From: an uncultured Candidatus Poseidoniales archaeon
GTDB taxonomy: Archaea > Thermoplasmatota > Poseidoniia > Poseidoniales > Thalassarchaeaceae
DNA: 64,000 nt
Direction: 5' to 3'
Assembly (NCBI GenBank): GCA_964645485.1
Contig: CAZXZO010000001.1
Coordinates: 18,203-82,202, forward strand
The notes below the pieces were generated by a model. The model searched no databases. It saw only the letters and a program-made list of their open reading frames with translations, and was not told the DNA's origin. The position numbers and the translations under genes are program-made. Positions 1-56,035 of the stretch are shown here, piece after piece; the first letter of the stretch is position 1, and every line of letters begins with the position of its first letter.

Positions 1-4
1 CTTT

Positions 5-565
5 GTGGTTAGTGAATTGCTCGGCAGGGGTTTTGGGAGTCAATCCCTAGTCATTAATTTGGAGGCGCCATGGATTCATGCTTCGCAAGGTGAACTGATT
101 GGAAATATGTCGCAGTTACCAGATCATACTCTTGTTCACGTCGTTGAATATGAGACAGATATTGTTGTTGAAAAGTGCATTGGGCGCTGGCAGCATGCTC
201 GCTTACTTGCTCGGGATGGTATCACCTCTCTGCCGTCTGAGCAAGTACTTTTCTTGCAAGTTTCTACAGATTTCCATGGATTCCCAAGACTAATGGCATC
301 CCATTATTTGCAATCGGATTTTGTTAGAGATTCTTTGGCAAACAATTCTTATTATCCGCGAATTGAAGCACAAGCAGATTTCGTCGCCTCTTCTGCAGTT
401 GGTGATATGGCTTCGGCAGATTCGGCTAAATCATGGTTCATGAATGAAGGAGAAATGACGGATTTAGGAAGTTGGTCCGATGGAACCCCAGTCAAACCAA
501 TGATGATTGTTTCTTCGCCCCTTGAATTGTCGGATGGAGATTGGGATGCTTGTCCTCAACCTTGA
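5..565 (+). CDS. Hypothetical protein, probably 5'-truncated by the window edge
   Basis: 186-codon ORF from the window start, stop TGA at 563-565; no motif recognised. Confidence 0.6.
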   Translation: MVSELLGRGFGSQSLVINLEAPWIHASQGELIGNMSQLPDHTLVHVVEYETDIVVEKCIGRWQHARLLARDGITSLPSEQVLFLQVSTDFHGFPRLMASHYLQSDFVRDSLANNSYYPRIEAQADFVASSAVGDMASADSAKSWFMNEGEMTDLGSWSDGTPVKPMMIVSSPLELSDGDWDACPQP

Positions 566-571
566 GCCATT

Positions 572-628
572 TCAAGCGAGAGGAAGTTCGTAATTTTGTG
601 GTGGAGCGATTCCTAAATCGTCTGGAAT
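572..628 (-). repeat. Diverged tandem copy of the last 19 codons of taw1 (IPDDLGIAPPQNYELPLA*)
   Basis: 572-628 aligns to 629-685 at 46/57 nt, head-to-tail and in frame directly after the taw1 TGA. Confidence 0.95.
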
Positions 629-1753
629 TCAAATCATTGGAAGTTTGTAATTTTGTGGTGGAGCAATCCCTAAATCATCAGGGATTTGCCGAGTAGCAAT
701 GGGCAAGGTTACAGGAATAATTTCCTTACCAATCAGCGCTACTCGACTCTCGCGCCGGTCGGATAGAACTTCTCTGCCAACTAGAGGAGCAAGAGTGTTT
801 GAGAACTCCATGATATCATCGTGAGAAGGCATGTTGTCAATCGTGTGATTGTTTTGGGAATGTCCAACATGGACGTATCCCTTTGCCTCTATCCAGTCAG
901 GGTCTGCCAAATTATCAAGTCTGGCATAATCATCGTGATGACCTAGAGATTCACCTTTCAAGAGCGTATGGCGACACACAGTTCGGGTGTCCAAAGAGGG
1001 GAGCAGTGCGAGGGTTTGCTCAAGTTTTTCCCAGGCATTATCGTTGAACTTTGGTTTACAGAGTTTGTTGAAAAGTTGTTTATTCGGGGCATCAACACTG
1101 ATGTAAAGTTGGGTTGGGAGGGTGTCAAGATTTTCAATTACTTTTGGCAATGAACCATTTGTTACGAGGAAAGTTGAGACACCGTGGTCGTGACAGATTT
1201 CAAGAAATTCAGCGAGCCGAGAATACAGTGTTGGCTCACCGTTGAGAGAGATTGCAACGTGTTTCGGGTTTTGTGCGGCTTCCCATTTTTCAAATGGTAC
1301 ATCTTTGTGACCTTTGAATCCGGTTAGGAGTCTTCTGTGACCTCGAACACTTTCATAGAAAAGATGCTCAGGGTCGTCATCAACTTTGTTCAAAGTTTCT
1401 GAATGAGGTTCTCTCCAGCAGTAGGTGCAGGCGAGATTACAGGTGTCAACATTTGGTGCCATCTGCATGCATCCAGAAGATTCAATTCCGTAGAATGTGC
1501 CTTTGTAGCAATGTCGGTCATTCTTGAGGTCTTCTTTAGTCCAGTGGCAAACTTTGACACCACCGTGTTCTCCAACAAGTTGGTAAGATTGTTTGGCTAG
1601 TTTCACAGCAATTTCAGGTTCGATTTTGCTTTCACTAGTATAGGTAGTGACAGGGCTTCCTTGGGCTGGCATCGCGAATACCTCCAACAAAAACAGATTC
1701 CACAGCGGGATTGTGTCAGTAGTAAAGCGGGCGAGTAGCCTATCAGACTTCAA
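629..1753 (-). CDS. taw1: 4-demethylwyosine synthase (radical SAM, TYW1/Taw1); likely start ATG at 1672
   Basis: CNLACTYC radical-SAM motif, VKVCHWTK and CYKGTFYGIES motifs, AISLNGEPTLY, FLVTNG, WIEAKGY. Confidence 0.95.
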   Translation of the reverse strand: MKSDRLLARFTTDTIPLWNLFLLEVFAMPAQGSPVTTYTSESKIEPEIAVKLAKQSYQLVGEHGGVKVCHWTKEDLKNDRHCYKGTFYGIESSGCMQMAPNVDTCNLACTYCWREPHSETLNKVDDDPEHLFYESVRGHRRLLTGFKGHKDVPFEKWEAAQNPKHVAISLNGEPTLYSRLAEFLEICHDHGVSTFLVTNGSLPKVIENLDTLPTQLYISVDAPNKQLFNKLCKPKFNDNAWEKLEQTLALLPSLDTRTVCRHTLLKGESLGHHDDYARLDNLADPDWIEAKGYVHVGHSQNNHTIDNMPSHDDIMEFSNTLAPLVGREVLSDRRESRVALIGKEIIPVTLPIATRQIPDDLGIAPPQNYKLPMI

Positions 1754-1791
1754 CCCGCCGATTAGCAGAGAAACTTCTCCTCAAAATCTTG

Positions 1792-2187
1792 TTATGGTTT
1801 AATCCCGAGAACTTTAACACCATCAATTCCGATAAAATCACGGTCCTTAGTAATCAACGTTTGACCTGTTCTAATACTCACTGCTAGCATGACAGCATCA
1901 GCAAGAGAGAATTTGGTTCGACCTTCTTGGCGGCATTGCCATTTAATTTTCCCACTTTCGATGAGGTCGTCTTTAGTCAGGGAAATCTTGGTTACGAATA
2001 ATTCTACTTCAGTAAATGAAATATTAGGGTCACGATTATTTTTTACTGTAACATCTGAAATTTCTGCTAGTTGGTGTTGAGTAATGTACGCATTTTCACC
2101 CGATTCAATCAATAATTTAGTTAATTCAGTACTGACCGGTTCACGTTCCCAAATAAAATCTAAGACGATACTAGTATCAAGGATCAT
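1792..2187 (-). CDS. vapC: PIN-domain toxin (VapC-like)
   Basis: MILDTSIVL N-terminus, SLADAVMLA and LITKDRDF acidic PIN motifs; 4-bp overlap with the upstream antitoxin. Confidence 0.9.
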   Translation of the reverse strand: MILDTSIVLDFIWEREPVSTELTKLLIESGENAYITQHQLAEISDVTVKNNRDPNISFTEVELFVTKISLTKDDLIESGKIKWQCRQEGRTKFSLADAVMLAVSIRTGQTLITKDRDFIGIDGVKVLGIKP

Positions 2188-2489
2188 TCCTTATCCACTC
2201 CATATTCTGATTTATCAGATTCCTCAAAATCGTCAGTATCGTAATCCCATTGTTCGTGCTCACCGTACAGCCTTTTGAGGGAACCTCTTGCTGATAAAAT
2301 CCGTTGAATTCGTTTTGCTTCAAGTAAATCGGCCACATTGATTTCAATTATTATTTCATCACCTTTCTTTATTCCAGCATTTGCTAGTATTTTTTTGGGC
2401 AGAATTATTCCGAGCGAATTTCCAATCGCTCGAACCTTCGCTTTTATTGTTGATTTTTCAGACGCCTGATTTTGCTCAATAGTTTGCAT
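2184..2489 (-). CDS. AbrB/MazE/SpoVT-family antitoxin
   Basis: KVRAIGNSLGIILPKKILANAGIKKGDEIII swapped-hairpin signature, acidic C-terminal tail, directly upstream of the PIN gene. Confidence 0.9.
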   Translation of the reverse strand: MQTIEQNQASEKSTIKAKVRAIGNSLGIILPKKILANAGIKKGDEIIIEINVADLLEAKRIQRILSARGSLKRLYGEHEQWDYDTDDFEESDKSEYGVDKE

Positions 2490-2511
2490 GTATTATGCTA
2501 TTTGTTGACAC

Positions 2512-2536
2512 TATTTAAGATATTATGTTATAACAT
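2512..2536 (-). promoter_or_regulatory. Putative TATA box and palindromic operator of the TA operon
   Basis: Minus-strand TTAAATA at 2512-2518, about 25 bp before the ATG at 2489; perfect 12-bp palindrome ATGTTATAACAT at 2525-2536. Confidence 0.55.
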
Positions 2537-2634
2537 TGCTTGGTAATAATGAAAAATCAGAACATAAATAATCAAGAAAATTGGAATCCAAAACGTCAGA
2601 ATTTGAGCCGATTGGGTAAAATTCAACATGAAAA

Positions 2635-3492
2635 TTAGGCAAAATTTCCAGACTGATAATCAATAAATGCTTGCTGGATTTCAGCCTCCGTATTCATCAC
2701 GAATGGACCATATCTTGCTATCGGCTCGTTCAGTGGTTGGCCTGCTAATAGCAGTAATTCGGCACCTTCAACGGCATCTTTTGTAACAGAAAATGTGATT
2801 TCATCGCCATCAGTCAAAATTGCCATCTCTCCGTCATTTACCTCTTGTCCATCCTTCCCCCCGCCAACATTGAGAGCCCCACCAAAACAGAAGACAAGTC
2901 CGGTCAACCCTTGAGATAGGGATTGTGTGAGTGAACCTCCCGGAAGAATAGAAATGTGTAGGTAAGTGATAGGGATAACCGTATCAATAACCGCAGAAAC
3001 ACCCAAACTTTCACCGGCGACAACCACCACTTTGACTAAACCGTCCTCCGATTTTCCGACAGGAATTTCTCGGGCTGGTACATCTTGGTATCGAGGTTGC
3101 ATCATTTTCTTTTCACTGGGTAAATTTACCCAAATTTGGAATCCATGCATAATGCCGCCGGATTCTAGAAAGTCGTCTGGCGGCATTTCAGAGTGAATAA
3201 CTCCGCGTCCAGCAGTCATCCATTGCACGTCTCCTGGTTGCATCAGACTTGAATTACCAGCCGAATCCTCATGCAAGATTTTGCCCTCCAACAGATAAGT
3301 TACGGTCTCAAAACCTCGGTGTGGGTGAGAGGGTGCGCCGATTGCTTCACCGGGTGGCCAGTCGATTGGGCCCATCTCGTCGATGAGAAGAAACGGGTCG
3401 GTTAATTTTCCAAGAGCTGCTGGCCTGCGGACAGGAAAACCTCCACCTTCTAGGAGCCTGTGTGTGGGGATAATCTGGGCAACTTTTCTCAT
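2635..3492 (-). CDS. Pirin family protein
   Basis: DPFLLID, HPHRGFETVTYLLEG, GDVQWMTAGRGVIHSE, GFQIWVNLP, YGPFVMNT. Confidence 0.97.
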   Translation of the reverse strand: MRKVAQIIPTHRLLEGGGFPVRRPAALGKLTDPFLLIDEMGPIDWPPGEAIGAPSHPHRGFETVTYLLEGKILHEDSAGNSSLMQPGDVQWMTAGRGVIHSEMPPDDFLESGGIMHGFQIWVNLPSEKKMMQPRYQDVPAREIPVGKSEDGLVKVVVVAGESLGVSAVIDTVIPITYLHISILPGGSLTQSLSQGLTGLVFCFGGALNVGGGKDGQEVNDGEMAILTDGDEITFSVTKDAVEGAELLLLAGQPLNEPIARYGPFVMNTEAEIQQAFIDYQSGNFA

Positions 3493-7778: not shown

Positions 7779-10375
7779 TGGTTTCTCAGAAACTTCTTAT
7801 TGAAGAAAATTAGCACTAAAAAGAGAGAGGCCATTGAGGAAAACAGAAGAAGCCCATCCTGAATTGTTGATGTTGTTTCGTATTCTAGTGTGGCATTTGT
7901 GTGGTGTTTACAGCCATCAAGAGATTTCATTGAATCCACTGGTTCGTAGGGGCAACGATCAGCGCGAAATTCTCCTTCGATCCATAATCCAATTCCATCT
8001 TGGCGGGAATCATTCCAACTAGTATTCCACCAATTGTCACCCCAACTATCTCCATCACTATCATTCCATTGATAATAATTTAAGGGGAACAAGTCAATCA
8101 AATCTGCCCATCCATCTTGATCTATATCAGGGCATCCAAGATAATTTGCTTCTGTACTAGTTCCACTATCAAAGATACAGGCATCAAATTCATCGAGCCA
8201 ATCGTCATTATCATCATCATCGTCTTCATCAGAATCTCTACAACCATCAAAATCATTGTCACTGTTTGAATTGATAGTCCAATTGACGATTCCAATTGGA
8301 CAAAGGTCCCTTAAATCAATCAATTCATCGTTATCATCATCATCATCTTCCGTTGAATCTTGACAACCATCTCCGTCATGGTCGCTAGAATTGTTTGAAA
8401 TCCAATCAATATTCCCCCTAGTACAATAATCTGAGATATCTACTATACCATCATCATCATCATCGTCATCTTCCGTTGAATCCTGGCAACCATCTCTATC
8501 ATGGTCGCTAGAATTGTTTGAAATCCAATCAATATTCCCCCTAGTACAATAATCTGAGATATCTACTATACTATCATCATCATCATCGTCATCTTCCGTT
8601 GAATCCTGACACCCATCTCTATCATGGTCGGTTGATTGAATTGAGGTCCAGTTAAGTGTTCCTCGTGGGCATGAATCATTGAAGTCTATAATTCCATCAT
8701 TGTCATTATCTTCATCACAACTGTCACCTATATCATCACCATCATAATCTGATTGATTCGGATTTTCGGTTAAATTGCAATTATCTAAATAGTTGGGTAC
8801 ACCATCGCCATCTTTATCTGGATAAAATTGCCATAGAAAGAAATCTACATTCCTATCTAGTCCAAATGCAACTTTTGTTTGATTTTTAACACTCATATTG
8901 TAGGTAAATTTCCCGACCACGCTTATCATTCCATCATTTGATACCTCAATCGATATGGGTAGTCCGGATGGGTTTGTTTCAAGAGGCCCAGAGAATTCCG
9001 CCAACCAATATTTTTCAATGATGTTTTCATCATTGATTTTTAAAATAATAATAGCACTATTTGTTTTAATTGGCAGTGGCTTGTCGTACCAACTCGTATT
9101 GCCGTAGTATTTGATTGCTGCCAAGATACTTCCATCAGGGTGTTGAGTAACACTGTTAGGGATTACTTGGCTCAAAATTGTACACTCATTCGTTTTGACA
9201 TTAGTCCAAATCCCATCCTCACTGATAAATCCAGTGAATGTATTACAACTCAAGCCATTGATTTCAAATGTTCCGAACTGATAAGTATCATTAAAAAATG
9301 CTGGATTTGATGGATACATCCTTTGCATCCTTCCAGTAATAATAACTGATTTATTATCTAACAATAATATGTCAAAAATTTCAACTTGGCCCACACCATC
9401 AATAATAATTTTTGATAGTAGGTTCCAATAGCCTTCGCTAGAATAATGGAGAATGAAGGCACCTAGAGGGATATGTGAATAATTTTGGTCATGCGACGTA
9501 TTGATTGAATGATCACCAAATGATATATTCCCCTCTAAAATGACTCCCACTATCCATGCACCATCATTATCACATTCAAGACCATTCAATATAAGGGAAG
9601 AAATACTTCCTCCCTCACTACTTTCAATAGACTCGATAAAACCATAAATTCCATATTTCATGACAAATATGTCAAATCCTTGGCTTGTTACTTCGTTACT
9701 TACCGTGGTTGGGGATATTCTACCAGAATAGATCCCGGAAACGTATGAATTTCCAATGCTATCATGGCAAACTAATTGTGCACTCGACGAATCAAGGGAA
9801 AATGAGGGTTCATTATTGAAAATTTGAGATGTCAATAGTTCTCCAGAAGTTGAAATTATCGCAATAAATCCAGATTTATTTCCCTCATTTAGATAAGTAA
9901 AATTATTAATTGTTAGGTTTGTATAGACCTCGCCAACAGCAGTAATTGTATCAGATTGAGATATAGAAAAGTCAAAAAATCTGGCGCTGGTGCCAAGATC
10001 AATTATCCAATCAATACTCCCATTTAGTAAGTATTTTGCAATGAATGAATTACCATTTGTGCCATCTGAATTGTTAAAGAGATGGTTTCCCAACCATCCC
10101 CACGAACCAAATTTCCCGAGAACATACGTGTTTCCTTCCGAATCAAAAATTTGTTTTTCAAGTTGGTCTCCATGTCCTTCGCCACCACCAGATTTAAGAA
10201 TATGGACATAGTTTTCATCAGATAATGGGACATTTTCATCAGCTAATAGAATGTCATTTTGAAGAACAAGGTTTGATGCTGAATTCAACAATAACATCAC
10301 TATGGTAATCAACAAAACAAATTTACTAAAATATTTGGTTTGTGGCAGTGATAACCCCTTGTCGTTCATCAACAT
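7772..10375 (-). CDS. Membrane-anchored beta-propeller (SBBP-like) protein with TSP3-like Ca-binding repeats
   Basis: Signal/TM at the N-terminus; repeated D-x-x-GN-x-Y-V-x-G and FIAKY blades; DxDxDG/DDDNDG repeats with Cys; C-terminal TM. Confidence 0.8.
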   Translation of the reverse strand: MLMNDKGLSLPQTKYFSKFVLLITIVMLLLNSASNLVLQNDILLADENVPLSDENYVHILKSGGGEGHGDQLEKQIFDSEGNTYVLGKFGSWGWLGNHLFNNSDGTNGNSFIAKYLLNGSIDWIIDLGTSARFFDFSISQSDTITAVGEVYTNLTINNFTYLNEGNKSGFIAIISTSGELLTSQIFNNEPSFSLDSSSAQLVCHDSIGNSYVSGIYSGRISPTTVSNEVTSQGFDIFVMKYGIYGFIESIESSEGGSISSLILNGLECDNDGAWIVGVILEGNISFGDHSINTSHDQNYSHIPLGAFILHYSSEGYWNLLSKIIIDGVGQVEIFDILLLDNKSVIITGRMQRMYPSNPAFFNDTYQFGTFEINGLSCNTFTGFISEDGIWTNVKTNECTILSQVIPNSVTQHPDGSILAAIKYYGNTSWYDKPLPIKTNSAIIILKINDENIIEKYWLAEFSGPLETNPSGLPISIEVSNDGMISVVGKFTYNMSVKNQTKVAFGLDRNVDFFLWQFYPDKDGDGVPNYLDNCNLTENPNQSDYDGDDIGDSCDEDNDNDGIIDFNDSCPRGTLNWTSIQSTDHDRDGCQDSTEDDDDDDDSIVDISDYCTRGNIDWISNNSSDHDRDGCQDSTEDDDDDDDGIVDISDYCTRGNIDWISNNSSDHDGDGCQDSTEDDDDDNDELIDLRDLCPIGIVNWTINSNSDNDFDGCRDSDEDDDDDNDDWLDEFDACIFDSGTSTEANYLGCPDIDQDGWADLIDLFPLNYYQWNDSDGDSWGDNWWNTSWNDSRQDGIGLWIEGEFRADRCPYEPVDSMKSLDGCKHHTNATLEYETTSTIQDGLLLFSSMASLFLVLIFFNKKFLRNQS
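8250..8650 (-). repeat. 123-bp (41-aa) intragenic tandem repeats
   Basis: DHDRDGCQDSTEDDDDDDDxIVDISDYCTRGNIDWISNNSS unit; TCCAATCAAT at 8401 and 8524 gives the 123-bp period. Confidence 0.9.
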
Positions 10376-15423: not shown

Positions 15424-15610
15424 ATTTTTCATAGGGAGAGATTTTCTGTTTTTTCTTCATTTTTCATAGCGAGAGATTTTTCTGTTTTTTATGATTTTTC
15501 AAGGTGAGAGGTTTTTCTGTTTTTTCTTCATTTTTCAAGGTGAGAGGTTTTTCTGTTTTTCTTCATTTTTCATAGCGAGAGATTTTCTGTTTTTTCTTCA
15601 TTTTTCAAGG
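15424..15610 (-). repeat. Tandem array of five 35-36 bp units echoing the MFS gene 3' end
   Basis: Units start at 15424, 15459, 15494, 15530 and 15565; the last contains the gene's stop; consensus ATTTTTCAwrGyGAGAGrTTTTCTGTTTTTTCTTC. Confidence 0.95.
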
Positions 15611-17590: not shown

Positions 17591-17731
17591 CCCTAAATTC
17601 AGAAATTATTCGTCAGAATCAGGGTTTATTCATCAAATTAAGAAATTTTATTTCGCAAATTAAGAAATTATTCGCCAGAATCAGGGTTTATTCATCAAAT
17701 TAAGAATTTTTATTCCCTAAATTCAGAAATT
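17591..17731. repeat. 62-bp tandem duplication anchored on the JAMM gene stop codon
   Basis: 17596-17657 versus 17658-17719 match at 56/62; CCCTAAATTCAGAAATT is identical at 17591 and 17715. Confidence 0.9.
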
Positions 17732-20964: not shown

Positions 20965-21056
20965 TCAAACGGTGCCACCAGCAAATTTCAAACGGTGCTG
21001 CAAGCAAATTTCAAGCAGTGTCCCAAGCAAATTTCAAATGGTACCGCCAGCAGATT
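20965..21056 (-). repeat. Four 23-bp units echoing the 3' end and TGA of the thioredoxin-like gene
   Basis: Units at 20965, 20988, 21011 and 21034 all begin TCAA (TGA on minus) and end AGCAAATT or AGCAGATT. Confidence 0.95.
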
Positions 21057-46609: not shown

Positions 46610-46678
46610 GATTGAATCAACATAGGCGCCTTCAATCAATTGTCAGAAGAAATGGGTTAATTGTCAGGAGGTTGAAAA

Positions 46679-47146
46679 ATGGTTCAAGATTCAACACCCG
46701 ATGAGGACATAATTGAGATGGTTCAAGATTCTCCACCCGATGAAGGCATCATTGCAGAAGTGAAATCACTTTGGAAATTCATCGGACTAGGAGCCGTTAC
46801 CGCCTCTATGTGTTGTCTACCCAGCATTGTCTGGGTTCTTTTTGCTGGTTCATCAGCAATTGTAGCAGCAGACCAATTATCGAATGATTTGTACTATGGT
46901 ATTGCTCGTCCAATTGTTTACACTCTTGCAATCGGTATGGTGACTGCCGGGTTAGTAATTCATTTCCGAAGTCGTGGAATCTGTACTCTTGACCAAGCAA
47001 AGAAGGACAGGAGACGAATAATCAATACGGCTTTGGCAGTATTAACTATCACTTTCATCGTTTATTTTATTTGGAACTTTATTATTCTAGAATTGGTTGG
47101 TCTTTATCTCGGATTACCATGGGAAGATTCAGCCATCTGGAGATGA
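46679..47146 (+). CDS. MerT/MerF-like small membrane protein with a CC motif
   Basis: TASMCCLPSIV in TM1, three TM helices; 39-bp duplicated N-terminus; GGAGG before the ATG. Confidence 0.55.
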   Translation: MVQDSTPDEDIIEMVQDSPPDEGIIAEVKSLWKFIGLGAVTASMCCLPSIVWVLFAGSSAIVAADQLSNDLYYGIARPIVYTLAIGMVTAGLVIHFRSRGICTLDQAKKDRRRIINTALAVLTITFIVYFIWNFIILELVGLYLGLPWEDSAIWR

Positions 47147-54493: not shown

Positions 54494-56035
54494 ATGAATA
54501 CACCAAGTGGGACTGAGGTTGAAGGAGCCTCAATGCCTCAAGGGATTGCGGTTGATGAGGCGGCTGCATACTTCGGTGTAACTGATTCAGCTGACATTAT
54601 CATGCATCTGAATCAAACCGACCAAATAACTGGAATGGGAGAGTTTTTCTCCATCGCGATTGATTTGGTTCTGCAACCCGAATTTGGTTTTGAAGAGGCC
54701 GCACAAAGACTTGGATGTGAGGGTGGTGAAATCTATTATCTTTTGACAGGACCTTTTGGTTTAGTCTCTCTAAGCGACCCACTACGAGTTTACCTTGGTG
54801 GCGAGGATTCAGAAGGAAATGTCGGAGTCCATCCAGGCTTTCCAGAAAATGAGATGAATGCGCTTGAATCATTAACAGATATCTTCTCTCTTCTCAAAAT
54901 GTTTGGGCTCGGTCATTTAATCGGTGGATTACCCCTACTGAGTCATTATGTCTCAAAATATGCAGAGTTGGTAGCGGCATCTGACATGAATAAAATAGCG
55001 TTATTACAATTAAGTCAGGAACTGCATGTTGTGATTGAACAGACAAAGTCTGGCTCCGTAAGTCCGATTTCATGTTTAGGGGCACCTACACATGCTTCTC
55101 AGCCTGCACCCGCTCCGTCTACAGCGCCTGCACCTGCTCCGGTTCAATCACCAGCGCCTTCACCCGCTCCTGTTTCAGCGCCTTCACCTACACCGGTTCA
55201 ATCACCAGCGCCTGCACCCGCCCCTGTTTCAGCGCCTTCACCCGCTCCTGTTTCAGCGCCTGCACCTGCTCCGATTCAATCACCAGCGCCTGCACCCGCC
55301 CCTGTTTCAGCGCCTGCACCAGCGCCTTCACCCGCCCCGGTTCAATCACCAGCACCTGCACCTGCCCCGGCACCTGCAGCGGCTCCGGTTGCATCCCCTG
55401 CAATCACTTCTCCCCAGCCTGTGAATGTAGTTCCTAAAGAGCCGGCTGAGCAACCCCCAGTTGAATCTACAATGATTGAACAAGCACCACCTGCTACAAC
55501 AGAATCTATTCAACCAACACCTGAACAGCAGGTGGCTACTTCTGATGCATTCGCATCACAATTTTCTGCTGCAGCAGATATTGATGCCTCGGTCACACCT
55601 GTTGAAGCAGAACCGGTTTCTGAGGCTCCCCCAACAGTCAGTCAATCTCCGCCAATTGGCCAGAAACCTCAACCCTTTGTCGAACCACAAGTTGAAGCAC
55701 CTGCACCAAAAGAAACAGTACAACAAACTCCTCAAGCCGTTGCCCCAAAACGAGCGCCAATAGTGGCGAGTGCTCCTCCAACACCTACAACTGGATGGCC
55801 AACTCAAGAACCACCACAGATGCCAGAAACAGGTTGGCCGGCGGGCGCTTCTAGTCCTCCTGAAAAATCAGCACTTGATTCGGTTTCAGATTTAGTGAGT
55901 GGCGGTCCACATGCCCCCCAAGCACCTGTGCAATCTGTTCACCACAACATTCAGTCGGGCAAGAATTGCTCTCGTTGTGGAATTGGGGTAGAACAAAGTT
56001 GGCAGTATTGCCCGATTTGTAATTGCAATCTTTGA
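54494..56035 (+). CDS. Protein with Pro/Ala/Ser repeat linker and C-terminal zinc ribbon
   Basis: (P/S)APAPV(Q/S) 8-aa repeats at about 55100-55390; CSRCG...CPIC at the end. Confidence 0.8.
   Translation: MNTPSGTEVEGASMPQGIAVDEAAAYFGVTDSADIIMHLNQTDQITGMGEFFSIAIDLVLQPEFGFEEAAQRLGCEGGEIYYLLTGPFGLVSLSDPLRVYLGGEDSEGNVGVHPGFPENEMNALESLTDIFSLLKMFGLGHLIGGLPLLSHYVSKYAELVAASDMNKIALLQLSQELHVVIEQTKSGSVSPISCLGAPTHASQPAPAPSTAPAPAPVQSPAPSPAPVSAPSPTPVQSPAPAPAPVSAPSPAPVSAPAPAPIQSPAPAPAPVSAPAPAPSPAPVQSPAPAPAPAPAAAPVASPAITSPQPVNVVPKEPAEQPPVESTMIEQAPPATTESIQPTPEQQVATSDAFASQFSAAADIDASVTPVEAEPVSEAPPTVSQSPPIGQKPQPFVEPQVEAPAPKETVQQTPQAVAPKRAPIVASAPPTPTTGWPTQEPPQMPETGWPAGASSPPEKSALDSVSDLVSGGPHAPQAPVQSVHHNIQSGKNCSRCGIGVEQSWQYCPICNCNL

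Follow-up and report, generated by a model that had tools for sequence, protein, structure and literature searches.

We analysed a window of 64,000 nucleotides (nt; the whole stretch of DNA, counted from its first letter as position 1) from an uncultured Candidatus Poseidoniales archaeon (assembly GCA_964645485.1, contig CAZXZO010000001.1, positions 18,203 to 82,202), and describe here a tandem duplication at the 3' end of its taw1 gene. In the following, G000 denotes the genome under study, L-numbers denote the loci of relatives and of metagenomes, and X-numbers denote sequencing runs. The taw1 gene occupies 629..1675 on the minus strand and is predicted to encode 4-demethylwyosine synthase (TYW1/Taw1), with 348 amino acids (aa) counted from the ATG at 1675. 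The longest open reading frame (ORF) covers 629..1753 and would encode 374 aa from a TTG; the ATG at 1675 is the likely start, as the matching Met is where homologues of 338-352 aa begin. The product scores 352.6 bits with TIGR03972 (cut-off 317.95; E-value 1.5e-105) and also matches the Radical_SAM (PF04055) and Wyosine_form (PF08608) domains. Its solved homologues are 2yx0, 6djt, and 2z2u, with 2yx0_A matched at 4.6e-78. Based on these matches, the gene is clearly a TYW1/Taw1 gene.

The alignment of Taw1 to its solved homologues stops at residue 319 of 348, which indicates that the last 29 residues form a tail outside the known fold. The 18 residues encoded by the duplicated segment all lie beyond the part that can be aligned to 2yx0, 6djt, and 2z2u. 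All of the examined relatives, drawn from across the order, have its core motif, [FILY]P.[DN]LG[IV]A.[PS]... In Poseidoniales, residues 320-348 (629-715, minus strand) thus constitute a conserved tail, mostly with a terminal LP.., that extends beyond both the TIGR03972 model and the solved archaeal structures. At locus L051, the Taw1 tail is expanded internally.

Downstream of its stop codon, taw1 faces a convergent neighbour on the plus strand (2..565), which is the C-terminal part of a 545-aa ORF without a Pfam family. The sequence between the two live genes contains a second taw1 end. On the minus strand, taw1 ends with ...TRQ IPDDLGIAPPQNYKLPMI and a stop codon, and this is followed in frame and with zero spacer by IPDDLGIAPPQNYELPLA and another stop codon. 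We refer to the live last 18 codons plus TGA (629..685, minus strand) as copy A, and to the downstream segment, which we read as an untranslated relic tail plus TGA (572..628, minus strand), as copy B. At the duplication junction (628..629), the TGA of A is directly followed by the first codon of B. The stop of B is only 6 nt from the stop of the convergent 545-aa ORF, and B therefore makes up almost the whole 63-nt spacer. Consensus scans of 300-1000 returned no promoter-like or terminator-like sites.

The initial annotation of this stretch had described an in-frame second C-terminus directly after the TGA of taw1, and both sequence reading and a repeat search confirm it. The repeat search returned one direct-repeat family of 57 nt with a spacing of 57 and 81% identity. 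The annotated identity of 46/57 nt and the six synonymous changes among nine changed codons were reproduced as well; the other three codons change the residue, and the differences at codon positions 1, 2, and 3 number 3, 1, and 7, respectively. Tandem Repeats Finder, run on 1-3000 with a minimum score of 30, reported no repeat. A tandem scan for periods of 30-300 with at least 78% identity between adjacent units returned 65 matches in the 1.94-Mb genome and 0 in mononucleotide-shuffled contigs, which excludes chance as the source of the taw1 repeat.

Two local features of the repeat were considered and set aside. A GAATTC sequence at 626-631 is created by the duplication junction and is absent from both parental boundaries in this genome. 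An EcoRI ligation artefact was rejected on this ground, and we judge the site to be a coincidence. A putative conserved hairpin, formed in each copy by the codons for I-P...G-I, appeared attractive in that two of the A/B differences look compensatory. It was rejected because the pair is mismatched in four of the seven close relatives inspected.

The source is a metagenome-assembled genome, and 6 of the 65 tandem matches lie at or near contig starts (within ~225 nt), as is typical of assembly ends. An assembly or binning error could in principle have put two strain variants of the gene end in tandem. Contigs built from reads of three runs, however, bridge the junction. The Logan contigs of X1 (7,921 nt, depth 240) and X2 (13,494 nt, depth 153) span the region with 0 differences over 250-1050; these two runs may be the source samples, and the contigs come from a different assembler. 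In the unrelated marine run X5, a 133-nt contig aligns to 536-667 with 8 mismatches and no gap (~94% identity) and bridges the B/A junction. This variant carries 637 T>G, which replaces Met with Leu in the second-last codon of A. A more abundant relative in X5 (depth 118) has a B-like end that runs straight into the gene body and thus lacks the duplication, and a further X5 contig has an A-like end on a different flank. The contigs of run X4 leave 574-762 uncovered and point in neither direction, and runs X6-X20, with small word shares, form no part of this evidence. Logan assembly uses words of 31 letters. A and B have at most 18 nt in a row in common, which should be too short to mislead an assembler of that word length. 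The repeat is genuine, and an artefact is very unlikely, to the point of being negligible.

To establish which copy is the original, we compared the locus with its counterparts in relatives. A single tail is present in 28 of 29 loci of relatives from the same genus, family, and order, while the 29th, L019, ends before the 3' end of the gene. Similarly, all 80 metagenome loci have a single tail and no in-frame echo. Among 226 genomes of the family, only G000 matches a whole 181-nt query, and 11 others align to one half only. The tails of the same genus end with KLPLA, KLPIA, KLPLT, or similar residues before the stop codon. Natural Taw1 proteins with an ELPLA-like end were also looked for, and ...LPLA ends do exist, as KLPLA closes the gene in L002 and L004 of the same genus and in the close metagenome loci L044 and L046.

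In loci that keep the convergent neighbour, the residues after the single tail are N-[GN]-S-R-L-R-A-S-I-P..., the end of that neighbour read in reverse. In G000, this flank (N-[GN]-S-R-L-R...) adjoins B and not A. Since the downstream flank of the relatives adjoins B, B is the orthologous, ancestral end, and A is the added copy that closes the frame. Additionally, B is identical to the tail of L002/L044 at 51/57 positions, and the last two codons of A (atg att) occur in none of the 12 closest relatives. Judged from this comparison of sequences, B is the lineage's own old gene end and apparently no more than an untranslated relic today, while taw1 now terminates with the added copy, A. The initial annotation had instead taken the echo to be probably an allelic 3' end from another lineage or an att scar; the flank reverses the roles that an allelic end would imply.

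The origin of A is the next point. Both copies have a T at unit position 24, whereas all 12 close relatives have an A; the copies also share TTA where 10 of the 12 have TTG. The shared derived base favours, at the level of sequence, an old tandem duplication that formed in place. The surroundings of the repeat are consistent with this. The gene body is nearest to L007, L003, and L004 (88.1, 87.3, and 87.2%), and the downstream flank is nearest to L004, L007, and L048 (84.7, 83.2, and 82.7%). No signal of a recombination breakpoint was found at the junction, the body and the flank having the same nearest relatives. Furthermore, neither a donor lineage nor an inserted element was found among the relatives, metagenome loci, protein representatives, and neighbours of the locus. 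Collectively, these observations suggest that the replacement end A is not foreign to the lineage.

The same comparisons bear on a different origin, in which two diverged taw1 alleles, one of them perhaps on imported DNA of a related species, underwent unequal or illegitimate recombination. A and B would then come from different lineages, and both would have been coding until they were joined. Such an event would account for an A-B identity no higher than that of either copy to the tails of other species, as well as for the bias of the A/B differences towards synonymous changes. It would also agree with the polymorphic unit positions 6, 18, 21, and 49, at which A has the states of L048/L003 and B has those of L002/L044/L046. 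However, these four sites occur in 7 combinations among the 12 relatives, so that a match means little, and the base shared by A and B is lacking in 12/12 relatives. Moreover, no single-copy tail ending in KLPMI, KLPLI, or ELPLA was found in 28 loci of relatives, 80 metagenome loci, and 9 protein representatives, the last being a survey that leaves out the 131-member cluster of the closest representative, P0001. The shared affinities of gene body and flank speak against it as well, and stop-spanning doublets at 95-100% identity elsewhere in the same genome, described below, cannot be joined diverged alleles. We therefore consider recombination between alleles unlikely, although it is the strongest of the rival explanations.

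An in-place duplication must be old. The copies differ at 7 of 18 third positions (0.39), and G000 differs from its relatives by 0.28-0.38 at third positions over 207-311 gene-body codons. With divergence between A and B at or above the interspecies level, we infer that a duplication formed in place would be nearly as old as the split of this lineage from the nearest sampled species. Several observations weigh against this reading. A and B differ at 11/57 positions, which is more than either differs from the tails of some other species (6-10/57). The duplication must be close in age to the species split, yet it is present in none of the sampled species. Only 2 nt of flanking microhomology at most (AA) remain at the junction today, so that a microhomology mechanism is not demonstrable at taw1, although the 19% divergence may have erased the arms. 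Finally, B looks more codon-like than would be expected of a neutral relic. Four changes can be placed on the branch of B because A and 11-12 of the 12 relatives agree against it (unit positions 3, 9, 40, and 48); three are silent and one is not. This branch thus carries one change on 36 first and second positions, in comparison with three or more on 18 third positions. Additionally, when 16 gene ends are pooled, 24 of 42 differences fall at third positions, where ~45% would be expected as a rough estimate for a constrained live copy and a free relic.

The strength of this codon signal is limited. Under equal rates at all sites, three or more of the four changes on the B branch would fall at third positions with P = 9/81 = 0.11, so that the codon-like state of B is a hint from sequence at P of only ~0.1. 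Polarising the synonymous changes with outgroups proved unreliable because the relatives differ at 28-38% of third positions. The initial annotation had proposed that the echo evolved as coding sequence. It is right in that B is a former coding 3' end. The synonymous excess does not require such an evolution, since the live and constrained copy A accounts for about half of the differences. Copy A could change only at silent sites, and this, together with chance in a sample of 57 nt, would explain why the differences are mostly synonymous. The synonymous bias is thus a hint and not evidence of coding constraint on B.

In a functional reading, low-level readthrough or recoding of the TGA would yield a Taw1 with a doubled tail, and this would keep B under codon-level selection. 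B is indeed in frame and uninterrupted and has kept its own stop, the private changes that can be securely placed on it comprise three synonymous and one non-synonymous, and the duplication is retained in the ~6% diverged variant of X5. However, TGA is the main stop codon of this genome and closes 582 of the 951 ORFs that reach 250 aa. Among 34 tRNAs, in a genome that is 82% complete, no anticodon that reads a stop was found, be it of the suppressor or the selenocysteine (Sec) type. No Rfam match, and hence no element of the SECIS type, was found in 1-2500, and the folding is unremarkable (z = -2.0 for the minus and -0.2 for the plus strand). Moreover, none of the relatives examined (28 loci and 80 metagenome loci) has an extended tail. 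An in-frame position has a chance of one in three, and 8 of 15 similar doublets in this genome are out of frame. The suggestion in the initial annotation that readthrough would give a duplicated tail therefore finds no support, and we assign this device hardly any probability.

The order pirin, taw1, and convergent ORF is conserved in close relatives. On the 5' side of taw1, G000 has a PIN-domain toxin and a MazE/AbrB-type antitoxin between pirin and taw1 (1792-2489, minus strand). This insertion is shared with G011 only, which has a diverged toxin-antitoxin pair (48-66% identity) in the same place. Pirin directly adjoins taw1 in the five close relatives that hold both genes, L002, L004, L005, L006, and L007.

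This neighbourhood is relevant to the proposal, also made initially, that the echo is an att-type scar. Here an element targeting the 3' end of taw1 would have brought its own gene end and later been lost, as with e14 at icd/icdC, whose architecture yields just such a displaced C-terminal pseudogene according to the passages on it in PMC13626634. The presence of the PIN/MazE pair here and in one relative, and its absence from the five, can be counted in favour of this proposal. In contrast, zero bases lie between the two copies, and site-specific excision leaves one copy rather than two. The toxin-antitoxin insertion lies on the 5' side of taw1 and not at the duplicated end. Furthermore, no integrase family was found in the scanned neighbours (the 545-aa ORF, taw1, PIN, MazE, and pirin, which together extend ~1.7 kb to one side and 2.9 kb to the other). 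With nothing between the copies, an att scar is distinctly improbable.

Among known systems, icd/icdC at prophage e14 of E. coli K-12 is nevertheless one of the closest. In both cases, a housekeeping gene has a replacement C-terminal end and the displaced end persists as a fragment pseudogene; in the part of PMC13626634 that treats icdC, the displaced end differs mainly by silent changes and a few residues, much as at taw1. There, however, the two ends lie on either side of a 15-kb prophage, in a structure that is made and resolved by an integrase, whereas the taw1 copies abut with neither element nor integrase in the scanned neighbours. Unlike in icd/icdC, the displaced taw1 copy has also stayed on its native flank.

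To place the taw1 repeat in its genomic context, we classified the tandem doublets of G000. Removal of the 6 matches at or near contig starts from the 65 left 59, which were assigned with crude gene calls (1,542 ORFs, 90.6% coding). Of these, 31 lie inside a gene, mostly as in-frame protein repeats, and 15, the taw1 repeat among them, span a stop codon. Four lie in a convergent spacer, two beside a 3' end at a contig edge, five across a called start, and two in a divergent spacer. No doublet lies in a co-directional spacer, although co-directional spacers hold the largest share of the spacer DNA (76.5 kb, compared with 36.1 kb for convergent and 45.4 kb for divergent spacers). The identities of the stop-spanning doublets range from 78 to 100%, which fits one continuing process followed by decay. 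The periods of 8 of the 15 are not multiples of three, indicating that the in-frame state of the taw1 echo is incidental. The same kind of second C-terminus occurs at other genes, for example DLADLLAQFRA, TTLLKCQACGATRPVKL, and TKANDPQGILANLVSKL, each followed by a stop codon; some of these copies at gene ends are still identical. Doublets of 43-155 nt in this genome carry 0-11 nt of a partial third copy, and the younger doublets show 0-11 nt of flanking microhomology.

Several further doublets lie in the window itself. A T-rich doublet at 15440-15581 (C1:33642-33783; period 71 nt, 85%) sits at a convergent junction, where it overlaps the stop codon of an ORF of 433 aa on the minus strand. Another at 17591-17714 (C1:35793-35916; period 62 nt, 90%) is located in a convergent spacer and ends at a distance of 8 nt from the stop codon of a minus-strand ORF of 289 aa. 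An old doublet at 20965-21056 (C1:39167-39258; period 46 nt, 78%) extends across the stop codon of a minus-strand ORF (196 aa), again at a convergent junction. Here the echo is not in frame with the gene, which ends with SAGGTI before its stop codon, compared with FACSTV in the echo. Three more are found at 8376-8621, 46677-46754, and 55152-55307. Two of them, with periods of 123 nt (98%) and 78 nt (95%), lie inside long ORFs and are probably in-frame protein repeats, and one, with a period of 39 nt (85%), lies at a called gene start. Outside the window, doublets are located, for example, at C13:3798-3973, C13:4812-4925, C3:12311-12585, C1:133664-133780, C31:11532-11663, and C46:1784-1911. At these genes, the last 6-22 codons and the stop recur immediately downstream, in a copy that is either near-identical or decaying. 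The C46 doublet, with a period of 63, covers the stops of both convergent genes.

The density of doublets varies among related genomes. G000 has 3.4 doublets per 100 kb; the corresponding values are 16 for a piece of 100 kb from G001, 2.1 for G011, 1.6 for G005, 1.0 for G026, and 0 for 76 kb of G009. The G001 piece (G001:C5:1-100000, L167-L171), which belongs to the same genus, thus has ~5 times the average density of G000. Loss of the flap endonuclease was tried as a cause of the many duplications and rejected, because PF00867 is present in 5/5 genomes tested, including the duplication-rich G000 and G001; the gene is also present in G009, in which 76 kb hold no doublet.

The placement of the doublets could reflect either their origin or their survival. 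The genus may actively and preferentially duplicate gene 3' termini, for which template switching provoked where transcription ends or converges would be a candidate process, and some relics such as B may be kept by selection as spacers, 3'-UTR (untranslated region) elements, or sites of rare readthrough. A duplication that includes the stop codon leaves its gene whole, and a convergent junction has no promoter to disturb, so that selection alone can explain the placement. A termination-linked mechanism is also compatible with it. On balance, we regard an active, preferential process with retained relics as improbable.

The explanation we consider likely is an old, in-place, head-to-tail duplication of the last 18 codons of taw1 plus TGA, after which B was left as an untranslated, neutral relic. 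The 57-bp segment would have been duplicated in an ancestor of this species of Poseidoniales (marine group II), at about the time of its split from the nearest sampled species. Slippage during replication, template switching, or unequal exchange would probably have been the cause, which places the event among the short tandem duplications that are often mediated by microhomology. As the stop codon is part of the duplicated unit, the reading frame is closed by the upstream copy A, and taw1 stays whole. The downstream copy B, on the original flank, would have become non-coding spacer between taw1 and its convergent neighbour. A stop-spanning doublet at a convergent junction harms neither gene, which would explain why the duplication persists. 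With this inferred mechanism and neutrality, the repeat would be an ordinary and harmless short tandem duplication of a kind tolerated at gene ends.

In this respect, the locus fits a known kind of event. Two related papers (PMC13167724; bioRxiv 10.64898/2026.02.28.708716) report the de novo origin of short tandem duplications in bacteria, archaea, fungi, and viruses, together with a mostly neutral evolution and a depletion from coding regions. Similar to microhomology-mediated tandem duplications (MTDs), the taw1 repeat derives from a single-copy segment turned into a head-to-tail doublet without spacer, tolerated outside the functional frame and apparently neutral. Unlike at MTD candidate sites, which the available part of PMC13167724 defines by microhomology arms of 4-25 bp, arms of at least 4 bp are not demonstrable at taw1, where 2 nt at most remain today. 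According to the same source, 50-60% of the short tandem duplications in reference genomes are without remaining arms. Unlike the reversible and recent MTD variants, the taw1 doublet appears old, with 19% divergence. The main text of the MTD papers (PMC13167724) contains no passage on duplications spanning gene ends, and a literature search on gene-end tandem duplications in prokaryotes or Poseidoniales returned nothing specific. The repeat also resembles the minisatellites, or variable-number tandem repeats (VNTRs), of bacteria and archaea in its unit of tens of bases, its position in a spacer, and a copy number and decay that vary between relatives; it differs from them in having only two copies, which stem from coding sequence plus a stop codon.

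Taken alone, the taw1 duplication matters little, but it illustrates, in a well-preserved state, that a tandem duplication is invisible to selection when the stop codon is part of it and that it leaves a fossil of an older gene end. Such relics can mislead annotation as well as screens for recoding, as an in-frame second C-terminus is no evidence of readthrough. For the protein family, B preserves an older state of the tail (…LPLA), which shows that the Taw1 tail specific to Poseidoniales can freely change its last two residues (LA to MI). For these organisms, a doublet density that ranges from 0 to 16 per 100 kb among the examined pieces of close relatives could serve the study of duplication and deletion rates in streamlined, uncultured archaea.

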